Source of the DNA: Lytechinus pictus
Taxonomy: Eukaryota
DNA length: 64,000 nt
Direction of reading: 5' to 3'
Assembly: GCF_037042905.1 (NCBI RefSeq)
Contig: NC_087251.1
Span: forward strand, 35,032,001-35,096,000
Shown here one piece after another: positions 231 through 41,069 of the stretch. The position numbers and the translations under genes were made by a program. The first letter of the stretch is position 1. Each line of letters starts with the position of its first letter. The notes beneath the pieces were generated by a model. That model was given only the letters and a program-made list of their open reading frames with translations. It was not told the origin of the DNA and searched no databases.

Positions 231-327
231 GTTTTATCTGTTCCGGCGCCCGGTGGTCGTGATCAGTGATCCCGATATTCTGAAAGACATTCTGGTGAAA
301 AGTTTCTCCAAGTTTACCAATCATGAT
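231..327 (+). CDS. P450 exon (FYLFRRPVVVISDPDILKDILVKSFSKFTNHD)
   Basis: ttttcacag acceptor, gtaagt donor; clan-3 N-terminal motif. Confidence 0.93.
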
Positions 328-3300
328 GTAAGTCACAAATTATCTTTCTTGATTAGCGAACAATTAGTTGGACAATATATTTTACAATGTTTATTAACGA
401 TTTATGATTACCGAAGATATCTTATTTGAATTAGTTATATTCGCATAAATATACGATATAGGCCTACTATATTTAAAATGAATTATTCGATACAGTAATT
501 CCAAGAAATAAAAGCTCTAATACTATGCATGCGAGTAGTTTGGCTATAGAATCCCACCTGTTTATGTCCTATTTGTCATAGACATTCGTCTTGAAGAACA
601 GACCTTTAGATCAAAGTTTATTGGATCTTCGTGATCAGAGATGGAAAGATGTGAGAACAGTCATTACTCCTACATTCAGCGCGCTCAAGATGAAACAGGT
701 GTGTTGTAAAGAAGACGGAGTCATCCTCACCCAAACGGTCCAATCAGATATGATTATCTGTTTATTGATTTTTTAGATATTTATTTGTGTTATTTCATTC
801 ATCCATAAATCATTGATATATATGTATAACTATATATATATATTTATTTATTTTACGAATACAATTATGAGAAAAATTCACTTTATTCAATTACATGTAT
901 GTCATTTATGTCTTTTATCATTTTTTATTCATTCAATCAATCATTCATTCACAATCAATTCATTCATTCATTCCGCTTTAATTCAACTTTTATTTTTGTA
1001 TCGGCCTGCTATGATAGTCAAAAGCAATTTAAACATTTATTATTATTTCTTATATCGCAATTATGTGCTGAAAAGTGTCATGAAATGATCAATTTCTGCA
1101 ATGTTCCAAATTGTATTTCATGATTATTAGAAAATGGGAGAATATTGGCTTTGTGATTATCATAGGAGATTAATAATAATATGAAACACTTGTAACAATT
1201 TTGTCATGGGTTGAAAAACAACCCATGACAGCTATATATCTTTTAAGAATCCTCAAATGGTATTAATCAAAACAACGTTCATTGAAATTGCAATTTGAAT
1301 TCTGCATATACGATTGTCTTATTTTTTTTTATTTAGGGGGATATAATAGCATCCATACCCGTTGGTTTTTAATATGGGTAGTGCGAGAAGTTTTACCATC
1401 TATAGTATTATAATTGAATATTTTAGAATGTTTTGTCTTAATTTTATATTCGCTTTCTCGCTCAAGCTTTTATTTCTAGAAACACTTCTCTCTGGTCATG
1501 ATGGTAATATCATAATTAGGACTAGTTTGTTTCAAACAAACACTGAAGATGCGTGAAATTATTTCATAGAAAGTAAGCCTATCAAATGTAATTTTTGAAA
1601 TGATCTAGCCTACATTTGACGATGCTATTCATGATCTAAATTTCATTTAGATGTCTCCCTTGATAAACGAATGTTGTGATGTTCTGGTTACTTATCTGCA
1701 AAAGAAGCGAGAGGAGGACAACGATATAAGCATTTTCAGGTATAATTGTTTCGATCATTCATTGTTACAGTAGTGAAATTTGCTTTAGATTAATTACATT
1801 TTATACAAATCACTGTAGTTTGACCGGGCGCGCGCACACACACACACCCTCACACAAACACACATACCAGACACACACCCTCACACCCCACACAAAAAAA
1901 TATTCCAACTCCTCGTTAGAAAGCAGTAATTTCATTTTAAAATCTGCACCTGCCTTCGGTAATAAAACAAGTATTTGAACAAATATCATTATGAGATATT
2001 GAGAATTATGAGAATTGAATTGTTTTTTCTAACTGCATCGCAACAATTTCATTGAAATATGAAGAATGCGATGCCTGCTTTAATACTCATTATATTTTCC
2101 TTTCTTTCCTTTCTGTATTCAAAGCGTTTTTGAATCATTCACGACGGACGGTATTGCTGAATGTGCATTTGGACTTCAGGTTGATGCCCAGAACAATCCC
2201 GATAATCAATTCGTTAAACATGCTAAAGCGATCATGGAAGCTTCTGTAAAGAGCCCCGTAGCGATGCTGGCAGGTTAGTGCTTATAATTATCATATTAAC
2301 CATGTTAATTACATCGTCATATAGGAATGTATACGGGGGGGGGGGGGTATTATTTGGTTCGGGGGAGGGGGAAATGATATGCGTTCAAGAACATAAAGGC
2401 GTCTACATGGCAAAGGGTGGCAACGAGCACAGAGCACTGATCTGTAGTATGCAGATCAGCGGCATAGAGTTCTCTCTCATTGGAGCTGAACAAGGGTTTT
2501 GACCTAAAGAATAAAATACAGCGCACATATTTGGGTGTATTTTGTGAAAACTTGTATACACAAGAAGATTTTTAGGGGAAGGGTAACTGATATGATAACG
2601 ATGGGAAAAGGAACATCGATAATCGTTGCATTCTTAAATTAAAATGCCCGATTCGTGCACGCATTTTTTTCATTGAACCCTTCACCGCTCCACAACGTTG
2701 TTGCTCAATGGATTGGTCTTCTGACTTTGAAACAGAGGGTCGTTGGTTCGAATCCCAGCCATGACGTAATTTCCTTCAGCAAGAAATGTATCCACATTGT
2801 GCTGCACTCAACCCAGGTGAGGTGAATGGGTACCCGGTAGGTTAAAAAATCCTTGAATGCCTGAGCGCCTAGGCAGCCCAGCTAAAGCAGGGGTAATAAT
2901 AAAAGCAGGGCCCGCTGGGAGAACAGTTTTCAGAACTGAAGTGACTTCCCTGGGTAAATATACATATATTGATATTATTATTTTTCATTGAAAGCAATTT
3001 ACAAAAATAGTTCGATATTCAGTGGATTTATTAAATAGATGGCATTGAATTGTTTAAAGTCTTTTGTTTATATCGTCTTTATGCAGGAATTTTCCCTCCA
3101 TCCGCCTACCTGTTTAATGCTCTTGACATCGGGTTAATTCCCGCCGCAACGAGGACATTCTTTAGAGATGTTGTTGTCAAAGCTATCGATATGAGGAAAC
3201 AGTCCCCTAATAGCGAGGTGGGTTAGAAAATTGATCGCAAGGAGTTATTGCATTAGCTTGTGTAATAATTTGAAAACAGAAAAAATGTCAATCGTATAAA

Positions 3301-6300
3301 AATGTAAAATATTTTACATTGTCAATAAATCTGTAAGCGTGTAGATACAATGCATGTCCTAAGCGCATTATAAATAACCAATCTGTATATTACTAAAGAA
3401 AATCCTTATCATTGCAACCACGCCTAATGCTTGTATTTATATAGAGGAAAGACTTTTTGCAACTTATGATGAACGCCCACAATGATGACGATATCGGCTC
3501 AAAGGTCAACAAGGACACGAACGATCTTCATAACCTGATTGAAGAGCACAGTGATAATCCCCTCTCCTCAACTCAGAAAACTCAACTAACCATGGATGAA
3601 ATATTTGCTCAGGTATAGAACCATGGTATAGTATTGACCCGAGTGTTGCTCGGAAGCCGGGGGGGGGGGGGGGTCACCTAACCTGGCTGGATAGGTAACA
3701 AGTTTCTCTTGTTCATGGTAAAGATTGCACATTTTGAATGACTGGACGCCATCCATTTTCTAACAGGTGGTTTAAACCAGGGAGAGGTTCAAATTTTTCT
3801 ATGAAATAAAAAAGGGATTTATATCAGCTGCAAACCTAATCAAAAGTCCATATGAAACATACTAGCATTGAGGTACACACAACATGTACAATGCCAGACT
3901 ATCAGGCAGTGGAAACTACCTTCAAGACAACCCTTGCTGCACATTTTAATAATCAGTAACATATCTGACGGGCCAAAAAAATTAATAAATACAAATTAAA
4001 AAGGCATTAAAATTTTTACGGGGGGCAACCTGCCCTATCCCTCTTCAGGCACGCTAATAGTCCGAATCTTAAATCGCGTTGCTCTTGATTTCCTGACGCC
4101 CCCTTTTGAATCCAGGCTTTGCTGTTCTTTGCTGGTGGCTATGATACGACAAGCCTTACGCTTGGTTTCCTGGCCTACTCCCTAGCAACCAATCCCGACA
4201 TTCAGGACCAGCTAATCAAAGAGGTGGATGAAATGACACCAACCAGAGATTCTGTCGACTATAACGCGGTCGCAAAGATGTCATTACTGGACATGGTTGT
4301 CTGTGAGACTCTCCGGTTATATCCGCCAGCAGTTGTGTAAGTCGAGCCATCTTCACCGTGCCATCCTTCTCAGTTCTTTCTTGCAGTCTGCTTACCATCC
4401 ATGCAAACATCACCGTGTTTTGCTCTACATTCTTAAGAAATCTTGCGAACTTTTGCGCCATGATGAAACTCTGTCCTCAGATATCACGAGTTCGTGGCAA
4501 GACGACCATTGAAATTTTTATAAGGGACTGAAAACAATATCAGTCCATTTGAAAAACAGGAATTTCACTGATGATCCATATAAATATTAGCTTATACCCT
4601 TTTGATTTTTCTTGTTTTCTTTGCCTCTAATCACAGAGGTGAGCGATGTTGTGGTGAGACACACACCGTTCGAGGATTAACAATTGAGAAAGGAAGCCAG
4701 ATCTTCTACTCTATGTATAACATCCACCGTGATCCATCTCTTTGGCCAGAACCTGAGAAATTCGACCCCTCAAGGTTTGTTCTTCGAAAATATTTCTTCG
4801 AATAAAAGAAAGTAGTTCATAATGCACATAGTTACCTCTCTTACTAGCAGTTTGATGACATACTATTTACAATTATATGACACCTAGATAGATCCTTGTG
4901 ATTTGATTGGTTGTTTGATATCGATCATTCAGCCCATTTTACAATGACGTCATCGACCGTGCAATTTTAGATCCATTCATCGTGCAATTTTGGATCCATA
5001 CGATTTTGTCCATTGCACTCGCGCACCGAGACTGCAGCTGCAGGCACCAGCAGTGCGCTTGTTGTAATGACGTAACAATCAACAGACCGAACTCGCACTG
5101 CATGAGCATGTTTTGCATCGAAATTCATGAATTTCATATGAAAAAAAAAAATTCATGAGGGTGTTTCATATAGCTGTTGAGCTGTTCGTTAAGTTACGCA
5201 CAACTTTACGCACGACTGGAACATGTTCTTAGGTCATAAATCAATTACATAGGGATATCACATAGCACAAGAAAGGATCACCAGTCGTGCGTAAAGTCAT
5301 TTGTATTTATATGCACAGAGATACGATCTTACGTATACGTAAGCTCCCGAAGGGAGCTAGAGAGGGAACTCTTTTCGCGCGTTTTTGATTTTCCATAGGT
5401 TTTGTACATAACAAACATGGCTGCCATTTGGCCAATTTGAAGGTTGATTTTGGAAGGTCAATGTTTAATTCATGAGTAATGACGTCAAAATACGCATAAT
5501 GCACTTGTATGATTGGATAAAACGCTAATGTTTTATTCATGTACTCATGCATTAAACATTTTTTTCCTTCCCACAATTCCCTACGATATCAGTGCGAAGT
5601 GTCGTTCTTTTTTACTCTGCGAAATTCAACATTTGAAATACAATAGCAAGACTAATTATCTGTTTATAGAATTAGTATCCGGAATCATGATTTCTGAGTG
5701 AAATTCAGTTGAGCAGAAAATTATGAGGGAACATTTACATCAAAGTAATGGCATTCCATACAAATAAAAGTAAGTTAAGTTCAATTTCGTGCTTTGATCT
5801 CGGTTGTAATTGTAATGTGTTTGCTGCTGGGGTTCGGCGTCGCAGTCAGGGCCTTATGTACTTTGTGTAGTTTACTTCGGAAACCACAATTTCCATATTT
5901 CCATTACTGAGATCTGACTCCGGATCTGACTGACATATTTTCTCAGAAAATAATAGTTTTTCGTAGAACTAAGTTGGTTAATTAGAATGCTTCATGTCCG
6001 TCCTTATTAAATCTGTATTCCAGTACATTGTCATATATCAGGGGTAGATGTGGACTTGTTCAGTAACGGCAAAGCTGCATTAAATCTAAGCCAAATAATA
6101 TAGTCAGAGCGGGAAATGGGCATTGATACCGCCGGTGCCAGCCGGCTGCGAAATTGCCGATGGCGATGTAGACTAGGTCAGATTAGGTGTTGGGAATTAA
6201 TGTCACTGACAAGCTTGAGTTGAAGTTTAAAGTTGGGCCTGAGCCTACTGATTTTTTGACACCGCTATTCCATCTTTATATGAATCAATATAATTCTCTG

Positions 6301-9300
6301 CATTTAAAAAGAAGTTAATTTTAAATCGATTATTTAAATGAACTAGGCCTAAATCTATTTGGAATGATATTGATATCGGTAGATTTGCCACTGCCCACTG
6401 GTGGAATGGTTTGAGACAGATTTTAACATTAGTCTTTTTTTACTAAAAAGTAAGGCCCTAGGATAGGTCTAACTTAGATCTTGATTTCTAAAAATGAAAT
6501 TCTAGATCTGTCTGGTTTGACTTTTTCTACGAAGATTTAAATTAACTTTATTCTAGTCCCTAGTTGGACTAAAATTATATAACGGAGTTAAATGATTCTT
6601 ATTTTTTGGGGACAACATTTCTTTGTCAGGTTTCAAACTGCTCAGTTATCGTATACCATGAGTGCATTTTTTTTTTGGGAAGGGGTGACAAAATTTAAAG
6701 TGCCCCATTCTGAATTTTATAAGTATAAGTAGAGAGAGGGCTGATCCAATTGATTTATCTTTATTTTCCTCCTCACTTGACCATATTTATGGTGAAAGGC
6801 AAAGGGTCATTTAAACTTGCGAGCAAGCTAACTTTTTTTTAAAATCAAAATCAAACTTGAAGAGGAACTCACTTAGATGTAGAGATTCACATGTTTATAG
6901 ATCTAGACGATTTAAAAAAAAACCAATTGTCTTGCACTGGTGAATGAGCGAGAGCCAAATTATCACACAAATAATAATTATCCTACATCTGTCAAAGCTG
7001 GCTTGCTGTATAAGATTGACAAAAGGCCTCGCTATAGTAGGCCACGAATATGCTTGAACCATTTACTGACTCTTATTGACAATGAAGATGGTCAGTGGAA
7101 ACAGAGCCAGGTAGGCCTATGCCTATGTCGTCAGTGGAACATAATACAGAGAGAAGGAAGTTTTCGGTCAAGACCAGCTTTTTTCTAGTTGGGAATATTC
7201 AGAGGCTTAGGATAGGACTATATGTAGCTGGAAATTTTGAAAATATTGTTTTAAAAGAGGGATTTTGTTTATCACCTCTAAAATTCTAAACTGTATTGTG
7301 TGTATTTTGAATTGCAGATCCAATGGGATCAAGTTCTAAGCAGTCCCAGCCCAGTCAGAAGTACAAAGTCAACTACCTATTACACATCACCAAGAGTTAC
7401 AATCTGATGAGGAACAGGATATTTGAACTGAAAACTTGTAAGGTATGCTTGTTTTCGTTAAAAAAAAGGCCTATTTCTTTTTTATTTGGGGGGGGGGGGG
7501 GGCTATAGCAACTTTTTCTGAATCATGTTATCCCATATAGTAAAGCTCCGTTGTGAGTAAATATTTATTTGGATTCAGATTCACCAGTATTTCCATTCTC
7601 ATCAATGCATACTTATTGTCCATGTCTCTTATCTTATCTACATGAGTCATATGTGATATCACTTTAAAACTCAGTTACTTTGTAGACAGAAATAAAAAAG
7701 GACAAAATATTGAGAGTAATTTTATGATATATATTTGAATGAGTTTACACACTTAATCAAAAAAGTTCTATGAATAATGCTTTATGAATAGTGATCTATG
7801 ATTTTTACCTGGCTATATAGATTACTACATGTGCATTATCTAAACAATATTGCATGGAAAATTAGGGCCTAATTAAAAGTTTAAAACTTCGTAATAAACT
7901 GAACTAGATGAGTAAGAATAATTTATATCAGCAGCTCATTTTGTTCTTTTCTTTTTTTGTGTTTACCATGCAGGTTCCGCAGGCAGTTTGAGTATCACCA
8001 GGGCAGATTATAAGAACAAATATGGAGGCCAAGTTCATAACAAGTAGCTACTTCATCACAATTACATATTTTAAAAATTGAATGAATTTGAATAAACATG
8101 TCAATACATATTGAATGTTGCTTGCACAACACATCTGTAGAAAAAAATTGGAGTATTGATATTTAGGTCCATAGGTTTCACACAAGATTGAAATATTTTC
8201 CCAAAGGGCACACCTACCCACCCTTTATTAATGTTCTAATCATCTACATGTAGTAGTAGTAGTGAAATAACTGTTTATGATATAAGTAGTTTGAAAGGGA
8301 TAAGTTGTATTCTGGTAATATAATCAATTCAGAATGGGTCTTTACTGAGTTCTGGGCTATGTACATGCCTACAGACATACACAAGACAATAAGAAATAAT
8401 GGATTTTCATTGAAAATGTGCATACTAAAAAAAACAAGGTGACAGAACAAAGGATTAAGAAATCACCCTCACTCCTGGACCTCATTTCATTAAGTCTAAC
8501 CACTACTCTAACTCTTTGCCATTCTGGTAATTACCATGGAAACATTAAAGTAACAGATCAACATTGAGGTTCCCATGCTAGTTGCTAGTTACAATTGGGG
8601 CAAATTTACCATAATTGACGTCTTTATGAAACAAGGATCTGTAGTGCTGGACATTAAGCTGTTGAATTTATTTTTTGGGGGAAGTGAAAAGTGGCACTGT
8701 TTTGTTCGTTTTTAATCTCTTTTTGTTCTTGTAGCACTGTATTGTTCATGTCCTGTATTATGAACTAAATTAGCTCTTCAAATGAAAAAAAAAAATTGTT
8801 GGAAATAGAACACAGCTCTAGCAGCACTTCACAACAATAGACAATAAGCAATTTTATTACTAATTTACTAATGTGCAGATTTGGGAAGGCACTCTTTAGA
8901 GAAATGTGGCAATGTGCTCCCTTTTTTGTGAAGTGCCCTCGGTTAGATTAGCATGCTATTTCTTGTCAGCAAATGCTGAAAAAAAATTACTTGATATTTG
9001 AGTAACCGACTTTGAGAGAGAGGTATATCGTTAATTTTTTTAATGACATCCTTGATGTCCCCTTATATTGACTAAATAAGGCTTATCAATACCTATGAAA
9101 GTAATTTTTTTTAATTTGTTTTCTCTAGATTTTACCAAAAGAAATACATCCCCTCCCATGTAACAGCCTTGCAATTTCTGTTGCATTCATTATATGCATT
9201 TTGCTGATGTAATGTGATGCTTTGGCGAGAAAAAGAGGATAGGAATATTTTGATCACATATTCAGAAATTGATTCCTTAATAAATATTTTAATTTGAAAT

Positions 9301-12129
9301 ATACTTTCTAATTTTGATATTCGTGATTTATTTATTCACATTGCGTGAAAGATATGTGATAATGATGTTATTGCTACCAAACTGTGTTGTGATGTAGGTA
9401 ATGATGATAATGAAGAATACTTCTATATGACTGGAATATGATGGTGCTACTGATTGATTGATTTTGTTTGTCAGGTGTCTATGGGTATAATACTAGTACA
9501 ACAGGTAAGAGTATAACAAAGTATCAAAATACCATGCATGCATGGCAAGATAGCCCATAAAAATATGGCATACTGTGACATTTTGAGATCAGGTGCAGCC
9601 AAATTAGATATTCTTCCTAAAGAGATAAATGAGTTTGATACTTTGATTTAAGAGTGGGATAAAAATGATATGAGAATAATTGTTTGCTCGCATGATTATG
9701 TGGTACATGTATGTGTGTGTGTGGAAGAGAGGGGGAAGGGTGGGATCGATGGATAGATTTTGGGGCGGGCAGGTACAAATAAAATTTCATCTTGTTTGGA
9801 AGTGACCTTTTTAAGATAGCCTTGATGAGAGTGAATTCATGCGGGGGGGAGGGGGGGGGGGGTACTGGGCTGTCTTAATTTTGCTCCCATCCCAAACTCA
9901 GAAAATGTTTTTTTTTTAAATCTTTATAAGATTTGCACCAGATTGTTCATTTCAATTTCAAAATAAAGACAAAATGGCCTTCTAAATTGCTTTGCTCTCT
10001 TGCTCTGATCATTTTAAGTATTTACCCCCCCTAAAAAAAACCCCAAACATATAAATAATTTTGGCTATTAATGATGTGTAATGAAAATAATATGCAGTGA
10101 TGACTGCATGAATAGATCGAGCAAGCAGATCCCTAAGTTCAATCCTATATATTAATGAATTCCTTGTAAGCATCCACATTTCTTCAAGGGAAATAGCTTT
10201 AGCAATAAATAATTTTATTAATTGATGTAGTAATAATCGCGACAGGAAAATATGTAAACAAGGAAAGATGAATTAACAACTGAATACCGGGGGGTGAACG
10301 GGGGAATGAATGACATAATCTACCTTATTAATATTATTTACCTAAGACGCAACTCTATGAATTCATTTCATAATCAATCACGTCGCGCATTATGCTAATT
10401 AGTAACAATATACTTATTTGCATATCTTTACGCTGTGCGCGCAGGCCACGCCTCCGTTTCGCTGGTGTGCCATGAAGTTGTGGTGTCCATAGGCTTGTAC
10501 GCGAAAAATGGGAGCAGTGTGCACTTTTGACCTTCCAAAATTTCCCCATGTCTAACCGGATGCAGAAGCGGAGTTTCACCCCCCTGTTTATATGACACCT
10601 AGATAGATCCTTGCGATTTGATTGGTTGTTTGATATCGTTCATTCAGCCCATTTTGCAATGACGTCATCAACCGTGCAATTTTGGATCCATTCATCGTGC
10701 AATTTTAGATCCATACGATTTTGTCCATTGCACGCGCGCACCGAGACAAATAAATACGCATGTTGTAATGACGTAACAATCAACAGACCGAACTCGCACT
10801 GCATGAACATGTTTTGCATCGAAATTCATAAATTTCACATGAAAAAAAAAATCTATTTTTATGTGTCATATAAACCAAATAATGAATGTTTTTTTCATTC
10901 GTGCAATGGACAGAATACTTCATTCGGTGAAAGATGAAATAATGATCCATTCAACTCGGCTGCGCCTCGTTGAATGGATCATTTCATCTTTCACCTCATG
11001 AAGTATTCTGTCCATTGCACTCATAAACATTCATTATTTGTATACTTACGAACAGCTTTATGAAACACCCACCAGGTGCATATAAACCAAATAATGAATA
11101 TTTTTGTATTCGTGCAATGGACAGAATACTTCATTCGGTGACAGATGAAATAATGATCATTTCATCTTTCACCTCATGAAGTATTCTGTCCATTGCACTC
11201 ATAAACATTCATTATCTGTATACTATTTCATCCTGTTGCCACGTTTGTAATCGTCTAAGACTACGTTTGTAATAGCAGAAAGTCCATTCGGTCAAGCTAA
11301 GTTGATTCCAGTGCGCCCTCTACTTGATCTTGATCGCTTATTCAGGTTGCGGTAATGAATAAAAAACTTACGTTGTTTGTCCTTATTCTTATATCATAAC
11401 CATGTATGCCGAAGACTCTCGTCCAGACACGGAAAAGTGCGTAACCTCCATGAAAATATTTATACTTTGTCCCCCTCCCCCCAAAAAGTTATTTTTGAAG
11501 AGATTTAATCATGTATTGTATTATTGGATGTAATATTGGAATAAACAATAAAAATCATAACTAATTTTGAATAATCGATATATCTCCCTTCTTTGAAGGT
11601 TTAGCAAGCAGAATCGTGCTAACCGGCACCCGATGGCCTGGATACCATTTGGTGCTGGACCTAGGAACTGTATCGGGATGCGGTTTGCTTTGATGGAGAT
11701 TAAGATGGCCACTGTTCGTATCCTCCAGAAATTCCGATTTGTGCCAAGTGCAAACACGGTGGTAAGATCATGAAATTATAGGTACACCCTATAAATGGTT
11801 TCGGGAAACAATCAATTTTTAAAGTAAATTGTTTACTTTGCGTGATTTGATGAGGTGATTTGATCATCAATGCAGTTGGACATTAGTCAAATAATTCATT
11901 ATAAAAGACAGAATCCACTAAGCGGGGAATTTCTTTAACATTTTCTTCCCGAATAAGGTAAAAACCGTAATAACAATCTTTCTTTATAAAATAACTATTG
12001 TTTTATATTTGCTCAGATTGCTACTGAACGACATTCGTTTATCTTTTCTAGATTCCTGTGAAGTTCGGTACTGGAGAAAATCTCAAACCTGATGGCGGTA
12101 TGTTCCTTGGGATCGAAGAGCGCGTGTGA
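231..12129 (+). CDS. Cytochrome P450, clan 3 (CYP3A-like), 5'-partial; 10 exons: 231-327, 582-698, 1651-1739, 2125-2273, 3087-3217, 3445-3612, 4116-4336, 4637-4774, 11599-11761, 12052-12129
   Basis: Manual splicing at GT-AG sites gives 1351 nt, an uninterrupted frame of about 449 aa ending in TGA. Motifs: C-helix WKDVR, I-helix AGGYDTT, K-helix ETLR, FDPSRF, heme motif FGAGPRNCIG. Confidence 0.96.
582..698 (+). CDS. P450 exon (TFVLKNRPLDQSLLDLRDQRWKDVRTVITPTFSALKMKQ)
   Basis: catag acceptor, gtgtgt donor; WxxxR motif. Confidence 0.93.
1651..1739 (+). CDS. P450 exon (MSPLINECCDVLVTYLQKKREEDNDISIF)
   Basis: tttag acceptor, gtataa donor; 89 nt, phase fits both neighbours. Confidence 0.9.
2125..2273 (+). 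CDS. P450 exon (VFESFTTDGIAECAFGLQVDAQNNPDNQFVKHAK...)
   Basis: caaag acceptor, gttagt donor; E-helix D-x-I-x-x-x-AFG motif. Confidence 0.92.
2678..2980 (+). mobile_element. tRNA-derived SINE
   Basis: B-box ggttcgaatccc; family core tgctgcactcaacccaggtgaggtgaatgggtac shared with three other copies; (TTA)-like tail; flanked by tttttcattgaa direct repeat (2666-2677 and 2981-2992). Confidence 0.85.
3087..3217 (+). CDS. P450 exon (IFPPSAYLFNALDIGLIPAATRTFFRDVVVKAIDMRKQSPNSE)
   Basis: tgcag acceptor, gtgggt donor; F/G region, frame compatible. Confidence 0.9.
3445..3612 (+). CDS. P450 exon (RKDFLQLMMNAH...LTMDEIFAQ)
   Basis: tatag acceptor, gtatag donor; clan-3 RxDFLQLM motif. Confidence 0.93.
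4116..4336 (+). CDS. P450 exon, I to K helices (ALLFFAGGYDTTS...ETLRLYPPAV)
   Basis: tccag acceptor, gtaagt donor; (A/G)GxDT and ExxR motifs. Confidence 0.96.
4637..4774 (+). CDS. P450 exon (GERCCGETHTVRG...HRDPSLWPEPEKFDPS)
   Basis: cacag acceptor, gtttgt donor; meander region. Confidence 0.95.
5314..10586. mobile_element. 5273-bp unclassified non-autonomous element (D) with 8-bp TSD and no TIR
   Basis: TTTATATG at 5306-5313 and 10587-10594; ends CACAGAG...CCCCCTG; subterminal 15-bp IR at 5447-5461 and 10527-10541. Confidence 0.8.
8478..8640. mobile_element. Degenerate MITE inside element D
   Basis: imperfect TIR ggacctcatttcattaag ... ctttatgaaacaaggatc. Confidence 0.4.
10587..11043 (+). 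mobile_element. Inner copy (C) of the Crypton-like hairpin element; its original first 8 bp are at 5306-5313
   Basis: starts tttatatgacac; internal gtgtcatataaaccaaataatgaat; ~170-bp terminal hairpin ending attcattatttgtat. Confidence 0.85.
11599..11761 (+). CDS. P450 heme-binding exon (FSKQNRANRHPMAWIPFGAGPRNCIGMRFALMEIK...)
   Basis: ttgaag acceptor, gtaaga donor; FxxGxRxCxG. Confidence 0.97.
12052..12129 (+). CDS. P450 last coding exon (IPVKFGTGENLKPDGGMFLGIEERV*)
   Basis: ttttctag acceptor, TGA stop; ATTAAA near 12184 is a possible poly(A) signal. Confidence 0.9.
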   Translation: MPVKFGTGENLKPDGGMFLGIEERV

Positions 12130-12509
12130 AATTTCGTGTCGTCACATGACCCATTACACATGGTGTGTAAAAGTGTAAAACAGATTAAAATTTTTACAAT
12201 GCCTTAACAAACTAATTTTTTAAAAAGTGTGAAGAAGTAATTGTATTTCTACAAGATTGTTATCATTTTTTTGTGGTAATTATATGAAATCAATAAGAGT
12301 TTTCAGTTTGATATTGTTTCAGTGCTCATTATTTTTGGTAGACGCATATCGCCCATTTTAGGTAATCAAGTATGGCACAAGGTTTCAAGTAAATGTCAAA
12401 GCAACAATACGTGAATAATCAACCGATATCAATGAATGAATGAAGAAAACTTTGCATAATAGCCCTTAGGCCTATTTAATAATATCATATTCGATTCTCT
12501 ATTTCTTTA

Positions 12510-14150
12510 GTAAACACAAAAAATCCCTTGAAAATCGGGGTCTTCCTGAAGATTAGGTTTGTCTTCATCAAAATTCTTTCCTGCTTAGCCCAATCTTAGA
12601 AACCTTGTTTTTGGTTTCAAAACCTGCCCCGAAGGTGCATAGATGAGCTGAATGACCATGGTGGTGTTTATAGGGTATATTTCATTTTACTTTAAAGATC
12701 GTGCTAATTAGCGGAAAATCTTTTGATGGTTAGATAAACGTTTATAATACACTCGGGCTCGTGGACCCTCCCTGGAAATTTATAGTTCATTCAAGTAATG
12801 ATTTACAATACATTTGATATTGTTACGTAATGGTAGTAGAGTTCAATCTTACACTTAATGAAGTCTGATCCGTGAATATAGCCGGAGGGTAGAGTCTTTT
12901 AAAAATATTATTCATCTTTTTTTCCTTGTGTTTTTTTTATCACAAAAGTAGAATTCTAAAGAAATTATATCGTTCATTATGTTGTGATAGATTTAAGTGC
13001 TTTCATTTGATTTCTCCTTTTGCTTCTTTTACTTCGTGAACGGTCATCACGCGCATTTAATTTTTCCCTATCTCAACATCAGCCTTCAGACAAAGTTGTT
13101 TATTAAATTGTTCTCAATTCCTATCATTACTATTTAATAATTAGTAGCGAATACAACGAAGCTAATCATCTTTTAACTCATTCCTTGGTGATTTCTTTGT
13201 ATCGTTTTATCCATGTTTTCTACATCATGATATAATTAAGGGTCTCTATTTATTATATTATATTCAAACCTTTCGTTGACTGATATATATGGAAGTTTTT
13301 TGAAATTCTTTGGGTTGCCTAAAAGAAAATGATCTGTCTTCGAACGTATCTTTGTTTTGTTTTATGTGTCGTTATTCGTAAATAGTGTAAGCGTTCAATG
13401 TGTGTTATCTGCCAACGATGTGATTACAATGAGGATTGGATTTAAATTTTATGCTTATAAAGTGTGGAGTTCCACAGGGGAGCACATTAGGCCCCATTAT
13501 TTTTATGTGCTATCAGCGATATGTGTATTTGTGTTTTTTGAAAAATAAATTACTTTGTTATGCTGATTCTTAATATGTGTTTTTTTTATAAGTGTACTTT
13601 GTAATAAGTTACTTACGTAAGGACCCCATTGGAAATTAGCAATATCGGATATCATGGGCAATCCTGTCAAGGTATTTTGATACTTTTCATCTTATTCGTA
13701 CCTGTTTTATATCTGGAGAATAAAATCAATCAATCAATCGTCAATCTTTTTATGTCCCTGGCAGAGAATTTTGAGAGCGATTCTAGCGAAAGTACCAATT
13801 GACTAGCTTTTTTTTTTAATTTTTCATTCAGCTATTTGGAGTATCTGATCTAGCCGTCTCTTTTGTCGGGGAGAGTCCACGAGACCGGGTGTAACCGTGG
13901 GTTTGTCACTTTGTCTTCATCCAAAGATTTTCCGCTGAATAACCTGATCCTCGATGTGAGGTGAAATACCCACACCAGAAAACACCGAAGTCGTTTTTAC
14001 CACCTAGAAGTCAACTATGCACCTTTTGTTAATTTTCGAAACCGAAAACAATGTCTTTGATTGGGCTAAGCATAAAATAATTTTGATGAAGTCAAACGTA
14101 GTTCTCGACCTCGTGTGAGCACCCCGTTTGGTAGCCATGATTTTAGTTGA
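12510..14150. mobile_element. Old TIR DNA element downstream of the P450
   Basis: diverged inverted repeats: cttcatcaaaatt..tgcttagcccaatc..aaggtgcatag (12550-12645) versus its reverse complement at ~14010-14100. Confidence 0.6.
13600..13740 (+). mobile_element. 3' tail of a CR1/L2-type LINE
   Basis: ggaccccattggaaattagc..., AATAAA followed by an (ATCA)n tail. Confidence 0.5.
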
Positions 14151-15720: not shown

Positions 15721-16579
15721 GGGTGAAATTTCTCTTGCTGGGTTTCAAAATAATTTTGGCAGTCACGATCATATCATGTCTCGTCCGTGGCTAGGAAAGC
15801 ACGCACCATCATCTTACACCCGTCACCCCTATCTCTCTCTCAGCTCTTCATTAGCTCAGCTACTTAGAACTATCACCGAGTCGTCCATCTGGATTTAATT
15901 ATGTCTTTTTGATTTGCGTATGATGATGAAATGAACTCCGGGTGACATTGGGGCGTAGTGGTCTATCTGTACTAGTCGACGGATACCTTTCAGTAGTTCG
16001 TCGAGAGCTCTTCGTGAACGGACGTACACCGAGAGCGGAGGGGGATTAGCTACCAGATTCATCCATATAATAACTTCATCAGTTTGCAGACTTCATTTCG
16101 ATCAACGTGCTTCAGGAGTTCTCTCGTCTCCACTGCACTCCGGATTCATTGCCGTCTGATTTGAGGAATATTACCTGAAAGCCTTTTTTTAGGAGTTGCT
16201 AAACGAAACTTTCCCGACTACTTCTAATTAGTATCATCGCATGGCAGATCGTCGATCTTGTTTTATCTTTTCTTGTTGTGGATTGGTTAAAGTGGGTCAT
16301 TAACCCTATTTTTCTTTTTTCACTTGGGAGAATGTAAAGATCAGGGGCAGCGAAGGTGAAACCTCAGTGAGCTCATCGACTTACCTAAAATCAATATTAT
16401 TGACAAGCCAGACAGGTGACGACGTCACGTCCAGGTAGAAATTAAAATAAATTCGCAAATCTCTCTTGGATTTCGGTGAAAATCCATCGAAGCTTGGTCG
16501 AAAGCTGTTAGTTCACGTGGTGACAGGAGACGGAGCTCAGTCATTGCTGAACAAGCCGCTGGACTTTGATTTTTTTAAC

Positions 16580-19700: not shown

Positions 19701-22700
19701 TTCATTAACCTAGAATTTGAAATAGATAAATTGTATTTCATTATTCAAAAAAATGTCTTGCCGCCTTAAAATTTCATGAAGGTCAAATCGATTTTAAGAG
19801 TATTTTTCTTTTTAGAAATAGATCTGATAGAAATTTTTGAATTTTATTTCTGAAGGATTGAATTGATGAATAAGGCTTGATGAACGAATGAAATTTCGTT
19901 TTGGAGAGCGTCAAATTTGGCAAGGATATATTTTTTTCGTTGCATATAAATCTTGAGTGGGTCTTTTTTCGATTTTTCTCTAAACTTTGCTTGAGGATTT
20001 CACCTCGATTCCGGACAACAAGAGGCGGTCCGATTTAAAAGGAAATTAAGAAGGCTGGAACCCCTTCAGCAACATGGTCTAAACAGTCCCACATTGATGG
20101 CCCACACACGATTTTTCTCTCATGTCCTTGTCAAAATTCTGCCTCTTGAACATGTTGAATAAAATGTCCATCTTCTCTGCCCTATATGCATCATTCACCC
20201 ATTCGTTTTCGAATAGAGAGGTGTTTTTTTTTCGAGGTGACAGTTTCGTCTAACCCCAAAGAAAAGAAACTTTGAAAAGAAAGTAGCACAATAAATGGGC
20301 CAGTCACGCGATAAAAAATACAAGAAGCCAGTATAAAGAAATCCGATTACCGCCTCGTTATTATGAAAATTCAGAGATATTGTCACAAATGTTATTGAAC
20401 ATTTGTTAGGTTCTGAGTTATGATATTTGTGCTAATTCAATTGCCCGGGGTATATGTCGAGCAGAGAAAAATGATTGTGAAAATACAAAGTGAAACCCGC
20501 GTTCCCGGACAGTATCAGTTTCATGACTGTTGATGTTAAAAACTTGTTTTTGATTTAAGGAACCCAAGAAAAAGCAAGTAAGCCACCAATATCATGAAAA
20601 CTAGAATACCAGTGAGTTAACCCTCTTCTGATATTGAAAAGACGAGTGCATAGTCCTTATTATCGAATGATGAATTTTGAAATGTTATAATAGTTTCGTC
20701 ACATGCGCAAAAAATGACCATACAACATTACTACGACCAAAAAGAACACTTTAAAAGCAATCACGTATATTATTGTAATTGAGTGCAAAAACACGCCACG
20801 ACAAAATAATAATTAAGCCGCTAAAAGCACAATTATCTCATCATTCTGCAGAAGATTGAATCTATCAGAAAAGGTTTGCTGTACATTGTACAACAGGTGG
20901 CATATTTCCGACTAACAAGACCGAAACCAAATAGTTGTAACTGTAACGTGCTCGACAACGAGGAGGATTGTTTCCATGGCAACGGCAAGCGTTTGGTTTC
21001 ATCATGGACCATGGTTTCATCAAACTTTGGCAGCAGACCTAAATCACGTTGATGACGTAGAGGAAACGATTGTCGGCTTTTCATGTGTCTGAAACTTCAT
21101 ATTTACTTTGTCAGGTCTACACGGTAGAGGGGAAAAACTTTTTTTATGTTTCACTTTCATTGCATGATTAGCACCGTAAAACGAAAGTGGAAGAAATTTG
21201 TTTTCGGTGCACATACTCTTAAAAAAAGTTATTGTAAAAACAAGTGTTATAAATACAGAGTCGAATACGTCTCACGGGTTAGTTGATTAGTCTGATTGTA
21301 TTATCAATAAAGCATGCATAAAAATTTGCTTTCGAATTTTCGACTGCATTTTTTTTGCCAAATCGACGCAAACCTTCTTAGCCTTTTGTCTCTTTTTTTT
21401 ATTTTTTTATCACATTTCTATTAGTGCCAGTGTTTTCTTATTTTTCTTTTGGGCTGGGAGTTGTGCTTATAAATTTTCATTTTCAAATTTGATCATCTCT
21501 TTGCGTGTTATCCTTTTCGAAGTCTCTCCGAGAATTGGGCACTGACCATTCTTGGTTGCACGGAATTGTGTCATTTGCCATCAAGGAGAAAACTTAATGA
21601 CAATCCAGACAGCTCGTTTGGGCCAATTATGGACTATAAAGATCTTGGAATCGTCGCAGTGCGTGAAAGGCAGAAGCAGTGATTTTGATCTCGATTAGTA
21701 AACTAAACAGTGAGTTCCGCTTTAAGATGACACGTAGACGAACCTGTTACTAAATGAATTATGAAGGTGTTGAAGTATGATGATCAATGGGCAAGGATTG
21801 TAATCTAATTGTCTACGCATGACCTTGTTTTTGGCTGGTCAGTCATTAATACTCCACTGATTGGCGTCCTATCATTTCTTGCATGCACTGAGTCGTTTGA
21901 TTTAGTTTCCTCTTGAATTCAAGACATATCGGTTTTAACATGTTTAATGAAAATATTCTTGATAAAGCCAGTCTTTACTACAATTTTAGTTCACTTTACA
22001 CAAAAATATGTGAACGTCGACCTACATCGTTACCGTGGTTACTGATACATACACCCGTAGGTTTGAGACATCAGGTATTACACTTTGCGCCGAATAAAAA
22101 AAAAAGATTGACAAAGCCATGGTATTTTTTGCAAGTTTGAGAGAATCAAATATAGCTCACAATAGTCCCGAGCTTTTTTTAAATATATTTTAAACATAGC
22201 GCACTGAAATCATAATAATTTAAGGAAGGGGTTAGAACCTGGGTATTTCAAGGGGGGGGGGGGAAGACAGTGTAAAGGTTACGTCACTATCCTTCTGAAT
22301 CGAACGATAGTGACAGTGGCGCGGATCACTTTTTACACTCTTTTTTTTTTCTTTCTTCGGTTTTTCCCCTTCTTCGTCTTTTCAACATTCCTCTCTATTT
22401 GTGATTGTATTCCTTGAAAAAAAAAAATAATGGGGTAAGCCCCCTGTGTGTTGCAGCATTGCCCTTGGTTCTAGGGAACTTCATATCGAATTGGCGAATA
22501 TTATGTTAATTTGTTTTGTAGTCGATGGATCGAGGCACTCATTATCATGATTATTTTAATATTACGCCAATAATTCTTGAAATCTTGAAATTCTAATAAG
22601 AATGAATTACAAATTTCACTATAATTCTTACGTTGGATGTTCATGATTTTTAAGGCACAATTTGATATGTTTAATTAATGTTCATTATTATTTTAGTAAT

Positions 22701-24064: not shown

Positions 24065-24325
24065 GTCAACAGGTGGGGTTATAATGCGTCAGAACCCCAC
24101 CCTCCTTTCTTCCCACCTTGTTAGGTGCTCAAGGCGCTCCTCTGTTACCCCGGCGCTCTTTGAGGATTAATTTCCTGCCGGTACCCATTTACCTCACCTT
24201 GGTTGAGTGCAGCACAATGTAGGTGAATATCTTGCTGAAGGAAAACACGCCATGGCTGGGAATCGAACCCGCGTCCCTCAGATTGAAAGACGAGAGTCTT
24301 AACCACTACACCAAGTCTCCCCCAC
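24065..24325 (-). mobile_element. tRNA-derived SINE (same family as 2678)
   Basis: reverse-complement A/B boxes and shared core ttgagtgcagcacaatgt. Confidence 0.85.
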
Positions 24326-25339
24326 AATATATGTTTAGAGGTAGGAGGTCTAAAATATGTTCCAACTCAGACTAAGCTTTAGTAGGTGACTAATAACAGA
24401 ACATGATCATATGATTCTGTGGTGATGTCATATTTAATCCATATCGAGAAATAACCCAACTTCTTGGTTCCGATTTAAATTGGAAAAATAACAATGAATA
24501 TGGTTGATTCATGATTTTCATTTAAAAATTGGCAGAACATGGTGGCATGCCTTTTCATACAAAACAGTCACTGATCACTCGGCACTGCACCGCCTCCAGT
24601 ATTAATCTATTTTGAAGACGAAACGTCATCTCATAGAACCACGCATATGTCTTTTTCAATATAGAAAAGCGTCCTTTCTGCACGCGCCAGGGACACCGCC
24701 AATTGGAGGCGACAGTAGCTTTCAAATGAGAAAGGATGATTTCCTTAATGATAATATTCGTATTTTACGGCGTTGATAGTTTCACGGAAACATTTAAAGT
24801 TAACAAGGTTTAACAAACATTTAGTAAGAAGACGACTATTTCATTAATTATCTCAAAATGTATGCTCGGATTTTATTCTCCATTTCGGACTTAATGGAAA
24901 ATGTTTTGGCCGCGGAATTACCGTGAGAGACTAGAGAGACATAATATATGAATATCTTGCAAAATGTGCACATGTATGTGATATTTTTGGTTATGTCTAT
25001 TGGAGTGTAATTTACGCAGAACATTATTGTTTTGTAGGGAAGAATTATTATGCATTACTAATATTCAAGAAATGATGCTTCCTTTAACCACATGTACATG
25101 AATGCAATTGTGGTGTTCAATGCAGCATGTCCTTAAAACAGATTGCTGTGGTGGGCGGATATCACAGATTACTATGAGGCGCCGAATGTACCAATATTAT
25201 ATAGAACAATTATTTGTTATATAATCATTATTTATTAAATAATAACTATTATTTATATATAATTTACATTTTATTTGTAAATAACTACTATTATATAAAA
25301 TATCATTTCTAATTATTTATATATAATTCCAAGTAATAC

Positions 25340-25945
25340 TTCATTATTTGTAAATAATAATAGTTCGACATTCCATTATTTATAAATAATGATTATTTGT
25401 TTTTCATTATTTATAAATAATGATTATTTGTTTTTCATTATTTATAAATAATGATTATTTGTTTTTCATTATTTACAAATAATGATTATTTGTTTTTCAT
25501 TATTTATAAATAATGATTATTTGTTTTTCATTATTTATAAATAATGATTATTTGTTTTTCATTATTTATAAATAATTTGTTGAGTTTTCCATTATTTATA
25601 AATAATGATTATTTGTTAAATAATGAAAACGTCTACTTCATTATTTATAAATAATTTTTTCGAGTGCACCATTATTCTCATTATTTATAAATAATCATTA
25701 TTTAATGTTCGAGTTTTCCATTATTTATAAATAAAGATTATTTGTTAAATAATGAAATATCTACTTCATTATTTATAAATAATAATTTTGTTTCAATATC
25801 CATTATTTATAAATAATCATTATTTATAAACAATTTTTACAGTTTGCCATTATATACAAATAATCATTATTTATATACAAATAACCATTATTTATTAAAT
25901 AATGCCATTATTTATTAAATAATGCCATTATTTATTAAATAATGG
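25340..25945. repeat. 31-bp AT-rich tandem array in the left arm of the foldback element
   Basis: unit ttatttataaataatgattatttgtttttca, built on the palindrome cattatttataaataatg. Confidence 0.9.
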
Positions 25946-28217
25946 AAAACTCGCTATAACATGCAAATGTGGGACCGCCCATGATATGAATATTCATGAT
26001 GCGATTTCCTTTTTCGTGATTTTTCTTCACAAATTAAGTTTTGTCCATTTCCTCTTCATAATGACATTTCTTGAAGCAATTTTCTAGGGATATGGTCTGA
26101 TTGTAATATTCTTCATTTTCTATATAACCTTGTCTTCGTAGAAATATCAAAAAGTGTAATTTTATACGATTTTTCCTACAGTTCACAATCCCCATAGGCG
26201 CGCGTGTATCGTAGGGACAACCGGTGAATCGACGGAGTGCTCTTCATCGAAATACTACGTTGGTTGGTCCCCGGAAGTGGCGGGCGGAATTTAGCCCGAA
26301 TCCTCGATGGAAGTCGATCAAGTGCATATGAGCTGAGAGAGTGAAATATCAGTGTACTTGTACAGGCCCTTCTACTTTTTATAAATATTTATTGTTGCTT
26401 TTTTTGTTAAGTTAATTTTTCCTGGTGTAGAGATAAGTTTCAGTTCTAATAATGCACTTCAAATACATTTTGGAGTGTCTGTTTGAGGCGTTTGGGGCGA
26501 TTTCACCCTGGCCCCAAAATGCTCGCAACGACAATACGGGGCCATGGTGACCCCTAAATTTTTAAAAACTTATTTTTCTATTGAAAATTATCACAAAATT
26601 CACCAAAAGTGTGCACGAAAGCCTTCGTATTTCACTTTTAAAACTCCAAAAAGTGCCCAAATGACAAGCTTGGTCGCTTCGCTGTGTCGCTTTCAACTTG
26701 AGAACGTTTACGCGTCTGCTTCCCCCCCCCCCTCCTCCGAAAGAAATTCTGTATACGGCCATGCTCTAAAGAGCCTGGCACATTGATTTATGTATACTTC
26801 ATTTTCATTATTTTTATCTCATTATCATCATGGCCTTACGCAAAATTTTTTCCGGGGGAGGGGGGGGGGGGTGCATGGGGGGAGCAGGACGCGCGTAAAC
26901 TTTCTCATAAAAATCTTTAAAAAGCGAAGCGACCAAGCTTGTCATTTGAGCTTGGTCGCCTCGCTGTCTCGCTTTCAAGATTTTTTTGAGAAACTTTACG
27001 CGCGTCCTAGCTGCTCCCCCCCCCCCCCCGGTAAAAATTCTGTGTAAGGCAATGATGATAATGTGATAAAAATAATGAAAATGAAAAGTACATATAAATC
27101 AATGTGCCATATGCTCTTTTGAGCATGGCCGTTCACAGAATTTCTTTCGGGGGGTGGGGGCCGCAGACGCGCGTAAACGTTCTCAAGTTGAAAGCGAGAC
27201 AGCGAAGCGACCAAGCTTGTCATTTGGGCTTGGTCCCGTGGCTGTCTCGCTTTCAAGATTTTTTTGAGAAAGTTTACGCGCGTCATGCTCCGGCCCCGGC
27301 CCCCCTGGAAAAAAATTATGCGTAAGGCCATGTTGATAATGAGATAAAAATAATGAAAATGAAGTATACATAAATCAATGTGCCAGGCTCTTTAGAGCAT
27401 GGCCGTATACAGAATTTCTTTCGGAGGAGGGGGGGGGGGGGAAGCAGACGCGTAAACGTTCTCAAGTTGAAAGCGACACAGCGAAGCGACCAAGCTTGTC
27501 ATTTGGGCACTTTTTGGAGTTTTAAAAGTGAAATACGAAGGCTTTCGTGCACACTTTTGGTGAATTTTGTGATAATTTTCAATAGAAAAATAAGTTTTTA
27601 AAAATTTAGGGGTCACCATGGCCCCGTATTGTCGTTGCGAGCATTTTGGGGCCAGGGTGAAATCGCCCCAAACGCCTCAAACAGACACTCCAAAATGTAT
27701 TTGAAGTGCATTATTAGAACTGAAACTTATCTCTACACCAGGAAAAATTAACTTAACAAAAAAAGCAACAATAAATATTTATAAAAAGTAGAAGGGCCTG
27801 TACAAGTACACTGATATTTCACTCTCTCAGCTCATATGCACTTGATCGACTTCCATCGAGGATTCGGGCTAAATTCCGCCCGCCACTTCCGGGGACCAAC
27901 CAACGTAGTATTTCGATGAAGAGCACTCCGTCGATTCACCGGTTGTCCCTACGATACACGCGCGCCTATGGGGATTGTGAACTGTAGGAAAAATCGTATA
28001 AAATTACACTTTTTGATATTTCTACGAAGACAAGGTTATATAGAAAATGAAGAATATTACAATCAGACCATATCCCTAGAAAATTGCTTCAAGAAATGTC
28101 ATTATGAAGAGGAAATGGACAAAACTTAATTTGTGAAGAAAAATCACGAAAAAGGAAATCGCATCATGAATATTCATATCATGGGCGGTCCCACATTTGC
28201 ATGTTATAGCGAGTTTT

Positions 28218-28823
28218 CCATTATTTAATAAATAATGGCATTATTTAATAAATAATGGCATTATTTAATAAATAATGGTTATTTGTATATAAATAATGAT
28301 TATTTGTATATAATGGCAAACTGTAAAAATTGTTTATAAATAATGATTATTTATAAATAATGGATATTGAAACAAAATTATTATTTATAAATAATGAAGT
28401 AGATATTTCATTATTTAACAAATAATCTTTATTTATAAATAATGGAAAACTCGAACATTAAATAATGATTATTTATAAATAATGAGAATAATGGTGCACT
28501 CGAAAAAATTATTTATAAATAATGAAGTAGACGTTTTCATTATTTAACAAATAATCATTATTTATAAATAATGGAAAACTCAACAAATTATTTATAAATA
28601 ATGAAAAACAAATAATCATTATTTATAAATAATGAAAAACAAATAATCATTATTTATAAATAATGAAAAACAAATAATCATTATTTGTAAATAATGAAAA
28701 ACAAATAATCATTATTTATAAATAATGAAAAACAAATAATCATTATTTATAAATAATGAAAAACAAATAATCATTATTTATAAATAATGGAACGTCGAAC
28801 TATTATTATTTACAAATAATGAA
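28218..28823. repeat. Mirror 31-bp tandem array in the right arm of the foldback element
   Basis: reverse complement of 25340-25945. Confidence 0.9.
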
Positions 28824-29318
28824 GTATTACTTGGAATTATATATAAATAATTAGAAATGATATTTTATAAAATAGTAGTTATTTACAAATAAAATGTAAA
28901 TTATATATAAATAATAGTTATTATTTAATAAATAATGATTATATAACAAATAATTGTTCTATATAATATTGGTACATTCGGCGCCTCATAGATTACTGGT
29001 GAAAGAGATATGCAATAATGATGCATATATAGACTTTCAAATTTTCAGCATGATTTAAAATCAGAGGAATATTGACGTAGGAGTTGCAACGTGAGCAAAA
29101 ACCATGAACCCTCACGAATCAAAATGATATTTAGGCCTACACAGTGTCAAGGGAAGACATGGAATAATGAATTTGACGGCTCTGTCTCTGCATACAAATT
29201 AGGATGTGACTTCGAATATTTATCATTTTGAAATGTGCAATATATCAAAACTGACTGAGAGCCCACGTAATCTACAACCGCGACATACTTCTATAATGAG
29301 CTTTGAACCATAAAGCCC

Positions 29319-29583
29319 TGGGGCGTCGTGGTCTAGTGGTAATGACTCTCGTCTTTCAATCTCAGGGACGTGGGTTCCATTCCCAGTCATGGCGTGTTTT
29401 ACTTCAGCAAGAAATTTACCAACATTGTGCTGCACTCAACCCAGGTGAGGTGAATGGGTATCCGGTAGGAATAAATTCCTCGAATGCTTAAGAGCGTCTA
29501 TATGGCGGCTCGGCTAAAGCGCAGTAGAGTATATTAAAATAGTAGCTGCACTACGTAAATGATCCATATTATTATTGTTATTA
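29319..29583 (+). mobile_element. tRNA-derived SINE (same family as 2678)
   Basis: A-box tggtctagtgg, degenerate B-box, shared core, TTA tail. Confidence 0.85.
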
Positions 29584-29999
29584 TATGAGATTTGTACCAT
29601 GGAGGTCTGTTAGTAACCCCATGGTTGAACGCATGATCATCGCGTGAGCATAAACGATATCAAACGGGCTATCCCGTTCTTTATTTATCTCTTTTTCTGA
29701 TTTCACGTTGGGAGCTTTCCAGGGGTTCCAGCCATCAGCATCTTTAATTTTATTTTTGAAAAAAATATTATGGATGGATATGATATGAGTGTAGATGACG
29801 CATAGGTCTAGCTAGTAGGAAGTAAAGTCTGCCATGAAACACACGAACGAGAGGTAGTAGGTAGTGATGTATGGAGGAGACGGGATTGCAGGAGAAGAAT
29901 GGCCTGTCCTCGGATATCGGGGAACTAACAGATTAAACAGCTGTGATCCGAAGACAGCATCAGGCTCGAAGGTATAGACAAAGTAGAAATATGAAAGTG

Positions 30000-33566: not shown

Positions 33567-35065
33567 CCCAGCTGGAAAGAACACAATGCCACACAGTGTG
33601 TTCACACTGTACACAGTTTGTTCATAGTGTATTAAATATTGGACTATGCGAAGATGCGATTCAAACTGCTAAAACGGTAAAATTAAGCAGTGTAAAAGTA
33701 ATTTCACACTGTGGGCACCTCTACAATGTGAGTGTTCACACTGTCTTCACAGTATGTTCGCATAGTGGACCATGTGGAGATGTCATTCACACTGATAAAA
33801 AGCTTAAAATATAATAGTGTGAAGATGATTTCACACTGTGAACATCCCAACAATAAGAGTAGACACAGACTGATCACAGTATATTCAAATTTAACACTGT
33901 TTAAGTGGACTATTTGATAATGTCATTCAAACTGTTAAAAATGTTCAAATTTAATAGTGTAATGGTAATTTCACACTGTGGACATTTCTGCAATGTGAAT
34001 GTTCACACTGTCTTCACAGTGTATTCACACATAGGACTTTGTGAAGATGCGTTTCAAACTGTAAAATGCTCAAATTTAATAGTGTGAAGATGATTTCACA
34101 CTGTGAACATCCCAACAATAAGAGTAGAGACACAGACTGATCACAGTATATTCTTACAGTGGACTGTTTGAAAATGTTATTCAAACTATTAACATGTTCA
34201 AATTTAACACTGTTTAAGTGGACTATTTGATGTCATTCAAACTGTTAAAAATGTTCAAATTTAATAGTGTAATGGTAATTTCACACTGTGGACATTTCTA
34301 CAATGTGAGTGTTCACACTGTCTTCACAGTGTATTCACACATAGGACTTTGTGAAGATGCGGTTGAAACTGTAAAATACTCAAATTTGATAGTGTGTAGA
34401 TGATATCATACTGTGGACACCTCGGTAGTGTGTGTGTGTTCACAGTGGATTCTTGCAGTGGATTGTGTGAAAATGTGATTCGCGCTGATGATAAAATACC
34501 TTAATTTCATAGTGCTAAAATAATTTCAGACTGTGGACACTTCGGTAGTGTGTATGTGTTCACAGTGCATTCTTGCAGTGGATTGTGTGAAAATAGGATT
34601 CGCGCTGATGATAAAATAACTTAATTTCATAGTGTTAAAATAATTTCAGACTGTGGACACTTCGGTAGTGTGTATGTGTTCACAGTGCATTCTTGCAGTG
34701 GATTGTGTGAAAATGTGATTCGTGCTGATGATAAAATACCTTAATTTGATAGTGTTAAAATAATTTCAGACTGTGGACACTTCGGAAGTGTGTGTGTGTT
34801 CACAGTGTATTCTTATCATGGCTACGTGGAGATGTGTTTCACACTATTAAAACGCTCAATTTCAACTGCGTGAAGATAATTTCACACTGTGGACACCTCG
34901 ATACTGTGAGTTTTCACAGTGTGTTTACAATGCATTGTTTTAGTGAACTACGTATAAATGTGGTTCACACTATTAAAGTGCTCAAATTTAGCAGTGTGGA
35001 GATGATTTCACGTTGTTGTCCACACTGTGAACACACTGTGGGACACTGTGTTCTTTTCAAGAGGG
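33567..35065. mobile_element. EnSpm/CMC-like non-autonomous element filled with ~120-125-bp tandem repeats
   Basis: CCC..GGG ends; ~45-bp imperfect TIR (cccagctggaaagaacaca / tgtgttcttttcaagaggg); 2-bp TSD AT; period-120 units at 34400-34800. Confidence 0.8.
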
Positions 35066-40250: not shown

Positions 40251-40559
40251 ATATATACATATATGACAGTTACTTCTTAGCTTTCTTCTTATAAAAGAAC
40301 AAAGATATACTGTATAATTAGATAACTCGATAACTGAAGCGCGAGCTATTTTTTTGGGGGAAATTTTATGTATTTTGTCCTGAAAATGAACATTTTGAGC
40401 AATGTTTGTGGTCCTGAACAAGATAAGTATGTAACAAATAATAACTGCGAACGCGATCAGATATTTTTTTTAGATACGCTCTGGTCTGATCGAAAGTGAA
40501 CTGTTATAAGGACTGTTTGCAGTAACCCATTAAGACGATACACATATCAACAATCAAAT

Positions 40560-40980
40560 AATGGGAGTGCGAAGCGCGAGCGGAAATAAAAATGAGATTC
40601 AGACCTAAAAACGGGACATCTTAAGCACTTTTCTAATCATGAACAGGATAGGTTTATATTACTATACAATTGATGCGAGCGGGAAGCGCGAGCGGAAATA
40701 AAAATGAGATTTCAGACCTAAAAACAGGACATCTTAAGCACTTTTCTAATCATGAACAGGTTAGGTATATAACTATTCAATTGATGCGAGCGCTAAGCGC
40801 GACCGGAAACAAAATTGAGATTTCATACCAAAAAACGAGACATTCTAAGCACTTTTCTAATCATGAACAGGATAGGTATAATTGTAACTATACAATTGAT
40901 GCGAGCGCCAAGCGCGAGCGGAAACAAAATTAATATTTCAGACCTATAATCGGGACATTCTATTCATGTTTTGTAAATCA
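40560..40980. repeat. 111-115-bp tandem repeat, about 3.5 copies, inside the hAT-like element
   Basis: cggaaa anchor at 40581, 40693, 40804, 40919; gcgagcgcgaagcgcgagc hairpin motif. Confidence 0.85.
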
Positions 40981-41069
40981 AGAAAATGATGGGTAATTGG
41001 ATATATTCGTACATGAATAATGTGAGCGCGAAGCGCGAGCAGAAAATTTTTGATATTCTGATCTGAAAC

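Follow-up and report, generated by a model that had tools for sequence, protein, structure and literature searches.

In a model sea urchin, near-perfect kilobase palindromes can give rise to inversions and to errors of assembly, and the one present in the 64-kb stretch of Lytechinus pictus DNA analysed here (contig NC_087251.1; hereafter the window) raises the question of what kind of transposon it is, whose transposase moved it and how recently. The element occupies 3,818 bp (25173-28990) and is bounded on both sides by GATTAC. Its arms (25173-26732 and 27431-28990) mismatch at two positions only (25293/28870 and 25370/28793) and, past a C run at 26721 with a 2-nt indel, are identical on to 26827/27334, giving a total of ~1,655 bp at 99.9% identity; together, the two arms (1.66 kb each) make up 87% of the element. 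The two substitutions, with a homopolymer-length difference further in, had been read correctly in a preliminary description of this DNA. The same description spoke of a giant palindrome, a term that fits the near-identical arms but not the middle ~480 bp of the element, which are only ~88% complementary or less, so that the palindrome is imperfect. The termini read TAT..ATA (TATGA at the tip) and the terminal 16-mer has two matches in the window, both being the ends of the element (0.15 expected). The features are as follows:

25167..25172 (no strand): left target-site duplication GATTAC; boundary set by the loose ends of other copies
25173..25200 (+): left tip, 28 bp, non-repetitive (TATGAGGCGCC...), the part most widely common to the copies
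25201..25945 (+): left arm outer domain, array of CATTATTTATAAATAATG, 13.6% GC
25946..26654 (+): left arm unique inner domain, with a CpG-rich patch at 26190-26339
26655..26936 (-): inverted 15-bp linker and unit P1 (26670-26936), opposite to P2 and P3
26937..27214 (+): linker and unit P2 (26952-27214), a decayed palindrome
27215..27508 (+): linker, unit P3 (27230-27493) and final linker; P3 is 89.5% alike to P2
27509..28990 (-): right arm, mirroring 25173-26654 from the inner domain through the outer array to the tip; bears both substitutions
28991..28996 (no strand): right target-site duplication GATTAC, read directly

The longest stop-to-stop frame in the element has 131 codons and lies within the central repeat, and none of the 24 frames searched against Pfam (out of 34 element frames of at least 35 aa) reached the cut-off, the best E value being 0.03; the earlier statement that the element lacks coding capacity was thus borne out, the 24 being the longer frames. 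Long terminal inverted repeats (TIRs), an outer tandem-repeat domain, an inner domain and a non-coding middle are all present, these being the features by which foldback elements are defined in the accessible text of PMC4079207. Near-identical arms would also agree with a shorter element having inserted twice, head to head, and the central repeat could have been the target of such an event. However, a single duplication encloses the whole 3.8 kb, and a search of the centre for the terminal 16-mer gave no match with up to three mismatches, which means that neither half of the element has a second end. With one duplication and no inner terminus, the head-to-head arrangement was rejected and its probability is regarded here as negligible.

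Junction of the element with its target

The outer bases of the target AGATTACT are symmetric, and three readings of the junction therefore fit the window equally well: an 8-bp duplication with ATG..CAT ends, a 6-bp duplication with TAT..ATA ends or a 4-bp duplication with CTA..TAG ends. The three readings point to different superfamilies and, since the window alone is ambiguous, other copies were required to place the boundary. Contigs of four of the 24 sequencing runs listed (X1, X2, X3 and X15), placed on 24340-25370, served as the boundary test. In the 13 loose-end rows listed (of 37), those of the 'before' type comprise 26 contigs; 14 of these contigs start at 25173 and five at 25172, three at 25167-25171 and four further inside (variant ends), with none (0/26) starting at 25174. 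The statistics refer to run X3, in which, with three contigs with inner ends left out, 17 contigs lie at 25172/25173 and the complete absence of stops at 25174 has a probability of ~4e-9 under the 8-bp reading; the one-C extension carried by five of these 17 contigs (start at 25172) is compatible with chance (P=0.18). Contigs of X2 and X15 also begin exactly at 25173, and a contig of X1 that is identical to the element over 198 bp, at another site, breaks at the same base. Organism C (X3) contributed the bulk of these boundary data, through a sister family that is distinct from the element at the fixed sites 25285 and 25303. The 8-bp reading was rejected on this P value and on the lack of loose ends at 25174 among the contigs listed, and the 4-bp reading was rejected as well, given that it would permit no stops at 25173, where 14 of the listed contigs stop. 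Therefore, as the loose ends of other copies stop at 25173, the element has TAT..ATA ends and, at this site, a duplication of 6 bp, a length that derives from one copy; the TAT..ATA termini and the exact 6-bp GATTAC proposed beforehand hold once the boundary is fixed on other copies.

The same ends are present in many copies at unrelated sites. Depth in run X3 reaches 3,100-13,000 at the terminus, being highest at the tip, against ~80 on the flank, and the sister family in that genome amounts to ~20-80 elements by bin (30-80 over most bins), an estimate made for a related genome from summed contig depth, which is no exact copy number. Contigs of X15 with differing flanks match the 28-bp tip. 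At the two variable positions (25293 and 25370) X1 and X2 carry the letters of the left arm. Both substitutions are therefore assigned to the right arm, an indication that the two arms were assembled separately. This bears on a reading in which the element is real but its near-perfect, full-length palindrome is partly a product of the assembly, either because the arms were homogenised in the consensus or because of an artefactual fold-back read. Assemblers have difficulty with long inverted repeats, and the contig evidence covers 24340-25370 only; yet the duplication is exact and the flanks are unique on both sides, the arms differ at the very two sites where the left one matches X1 and X2, the centre, with its distinct units P1, P2 and P3, lacks symmetry, and the same ends exist at many other sites. 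We thus hold a contribution of the assembly to be very improbable.

Arm anatomy, re-copying and age

Each arm consists of a 28-bp non-repetitive tip, an outer array domain and a unique inner domain. The outer domain is built on the perfect 18-bp palindrome CATTATTTATAAATAATG, which has 12 exact copies inside the element and is absent from the rest of the window; with up to two mismatches the figures are 28 inside and none outside, and nine copies sit in 31-bp units at 25340-25617. We infer that this is a candidate transposase-binding array. The patch at 26190-26339 of the inner domain has 15 CpG per 150 bp, a value reached by 0 of 1201 windows outside the element, and it contains words that we take to be ETS-like and GC-box-like; possibly, it is a leftover promoter. 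At the loose ends of X3 and X15 within 25179-25200, related sequences start with TATGAG or TATGA and diverge afterwards, so that several families have this tip in common. Run X15 (organism F) holds a fraction of 0.31 of the sampled words of 24330-26730, yet it covers only 25167-25248 of 24340-25370, and most of its share must therefore fall further into the arm (25371-26730).

The centre is composed of three units of 263-267 bp, P1, P2 and P3, with a 15-bp linker between them, each unit being a decayed palindrome, 75-77% self-complementary and with near-perfect ends of ~27 bp. P2 and P3 stand in tandem, 89.5% alike, and P1 is inverted, with an outer half identical to P3 and an inner half 88% alike. 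Within this centre the identity of the arms steps from 99.9% to ~88%, a sharp change which implies that the arms were re-copied from each other. The simplest reading of the inverted P1 together with the identity step would be two rounds of arm-to-arm copying, of which the older extended across a whole unit and the other, a recent one, stopped near 26830. TIR extension and sequence transfer between TIRs have been described for Galileo in the accessible text of PMC4168063.

Given the arm-to-arm re-copying, arm identity is no clean clock, as it dates the last copying and not necessarily the element, and dating by arm identity alone was rejected for this reason. The orthologous left flank is present in run X3, with 15 differing letters in 500 and 8 in 275, plus gaps, and record 14 of this run tracks the flank to 25173 at flank depth and continues with 151 letters that are off the element. 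At an empty site GATTACT would be shared and the match would stop exactly at 25173; record 14 thus fits an empty orthologous site, on the assumption that its 151 extra letters are those of the right flank. Missing flank cover in X1, X2 and X15 was not counted as evidence. The insertion is recent, since the duplication is intact, the element is absent in a relative ~3% diverged and an identical end is found at another site. Therefore, the element may still be called very young, as it had been at the outset, in the sense of a recent insertion with an empty orthologous site and an identical end elsewhere, but not with arm identity as the sole basis for the term.

Superfamily assignment

The locus contains a real, recent, non-autonomous foldback transposon, and we consider it likely that it is a cut-and-paste element of the IS3EU/GingerRoot type, moved in trans. 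Complete IS3EU families, which are joined with GingerRoot, have termini that are always TA..TA and duplications usually of 6 bp, according to the accessible text of PMC10045372. The TIR-bounded element has likewise TA..TA termini and a 6-bp duplication (in one copy) and its host is also an aquatic animal; it is built like a foldback, yet it carries IS3EU end marks. Thus, it probably belongs to IS3EU/GingerRoot, an assignment based on the ends and one duplication, two to three terminal bases and 6 bp being weak marks. The preliminary description had given TAY..RTA as the IS3EU termini; TA..TA is what the accessible papers state, and the exact TAY..RTA wording was not found in them. Rust-fungus IS3EU families have TAYGG..CCRTA ends in the available part of PMC12730594, a motif that is a subgroup trait only and is not that of the TATGA end described here. 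In the accessible sections of PMC6839031, GingerRoot TIRs measure 100-150 bp, in contrast to the 1.66 kb of the element, which differs from GingerRoot also by its modular tandem arrays and by having no transposase. Styx of Zymoseptoria is IS3EU-related and has 6-bp duplications and degenerate copies that are still mobilised, but this element is fungal, ~7.9 kb long, carries coding sequences and is not a foldback (as far as the accessible text of PMC10853768 goes). The earlier view of a foldback derivative of IS3EU is therefore retained in its foldback layout, its non-autonomous TIR nature and the match of TAT ends and 6 bp to IS3EU/GingerRoot, and not in its link to a transposase.

Under the preferred explanation, an IS3EU/GingerRoot-type DDE transposase encoded elsewhere in the sea-urchin genome would move the element, presumably binding both the 28-bp tip and the 18-bp palindrome array, pairing the ends and inserting them with a 6-bp stagger. 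By analogy with Galileo, whose internal TIR repeats act as extra binding sites (as cited in the accessible text of PMC4079207), we infer that the internal 18-bp repeats could be additional sites for the transposase. The gene-bearing middle would have been lost, and the inward growth of the arms would reflect at least two repair events in which one arm served as the template for the other.

Drosophila FB and sea-urchin TU are foldback elements with long modular TIRs. The ends of the P superfamily and of Galileo are CA..TG, as compared with TAT..ATA here, and the 7-8-bp duplications given for this group in the accessible sources are not those of the element. The described foldbacks Tetris, Tm1 and Galileo belong to Mutator or P in those sources; Tetris of Drosophila virilis has TIRs of up to 1,735 bp and duplications of 8-10 bp (PMC4079207), whereas the duplication is of 9 bp in Tm1 of root-knot nematodes (PMC3169594) and of 7 bp in Galileo (PMC4168063). 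The three share with our element a non-coding middle and long TIRs of modular build, made up of a tip, an outer domain of tandem repeats and an inner domain; however, 7-10-bp duplications and membership in Mutator or P contrast with its 6 bp and TAT ends, and its middle is itself an array of decayed palindromes, unlike theirs in the parts of the sources available.

A real foldback TIR transposon could also be mobilised by the transposase of some other or undescribed superfamily that leaves 6-bp duplications as well. In the accessible text of PMC4079207 foldback structure is thought to have arisen independently in several lineages, mostly Mutator, and further elements with 6-bp duplications exist, namely Polinton, Ginger2 and some LTR elements (accessible sections of PMC6839031). 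Nonetheless, in the latter source Polinton has AG.. ends and a polymerase and Ginger2 has TG..CA ends, unlike an element that ends in TAT..ATA and is without genes, and the 8-10 bp of Mutator-type foldbacks such as Tetris and Tm1 disagree with the loose ends listed, which exclude the 8-bp reading. A transposase of another superfamily is, in our judgement, unlikely.

With the IS3EU/GingerRoot assignment preferred, we lean, with modest confidence, towards a wider reading in which this group would be a further superfamily with foldbacks beside Mutator and P, moving them now in a laboratory sea urchin, the 18-bp arrays being binding sites and the CpG patch an old transposase promoter mirrored in both arms. 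If true, the element would offer a donor substrate, ready for use, in work on a superfamily of hardly studied mechanism. Being recent, non-autonomous and present in many copies, with ends that are defined and an evident candidate binding motif, it is usable in tests of end recognition and cutting by the transposase. The element is not a new kind of system; it suggests that TIR extension leads convergently to foldback structure, which would then not be the mark of one superfamily.

Scans of metagenomes, viral contigs and prokaryote genomes returned no true copy of the element. A 20-bp metagenome match on a prokaryote-like contig (L001) and one 18-bp plus four 23-bp matches in viral contigs did not extend and were taken as chance, and two element patterns had 0 matches in the prokaryote genomes. 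An Rfam search of the 64-kb window gave 0 matches. Among the papers listed in searches of the literature on Lytechinus there was no description of the family, which Repbase, Dfam or paper supplements may already include.

Surroundings of the element in the window

Exon-like frames occur within 14900-60400, for instance at 15898-16092, 20082-20249 and 29584-29811 on the minus strand; protein searches with the candidate exons around the element and a Pfam search with 20 frames were without match. Decayed tandem arrays are found at 33644-34986 and 40542-40991, with periods of ~120, 267-310 and 111-115 bp. A dispersed repeat of ~110-170 bp is present in both orientations at 2725-2841, 24159-24327, 29320-29476 and 54435-54603, its copies being 72-85% alike, and with its tRNA-like start it looks like a SINE. 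A multi-exon cytochrome P450 3A-like gene extends over 232-12126 (+), its cleanly aligned exons being 98-100% identical to a protein named from Lytechinus pictus. Inside this gene a ~280-bp repeat, possibly a small non-autonomous element, occurs in two copies that are 96% identical (4873-5150 and 10588-10851); the second copy leads into repeats of 178-211 bp, which have inverted parts at 10890-11224.
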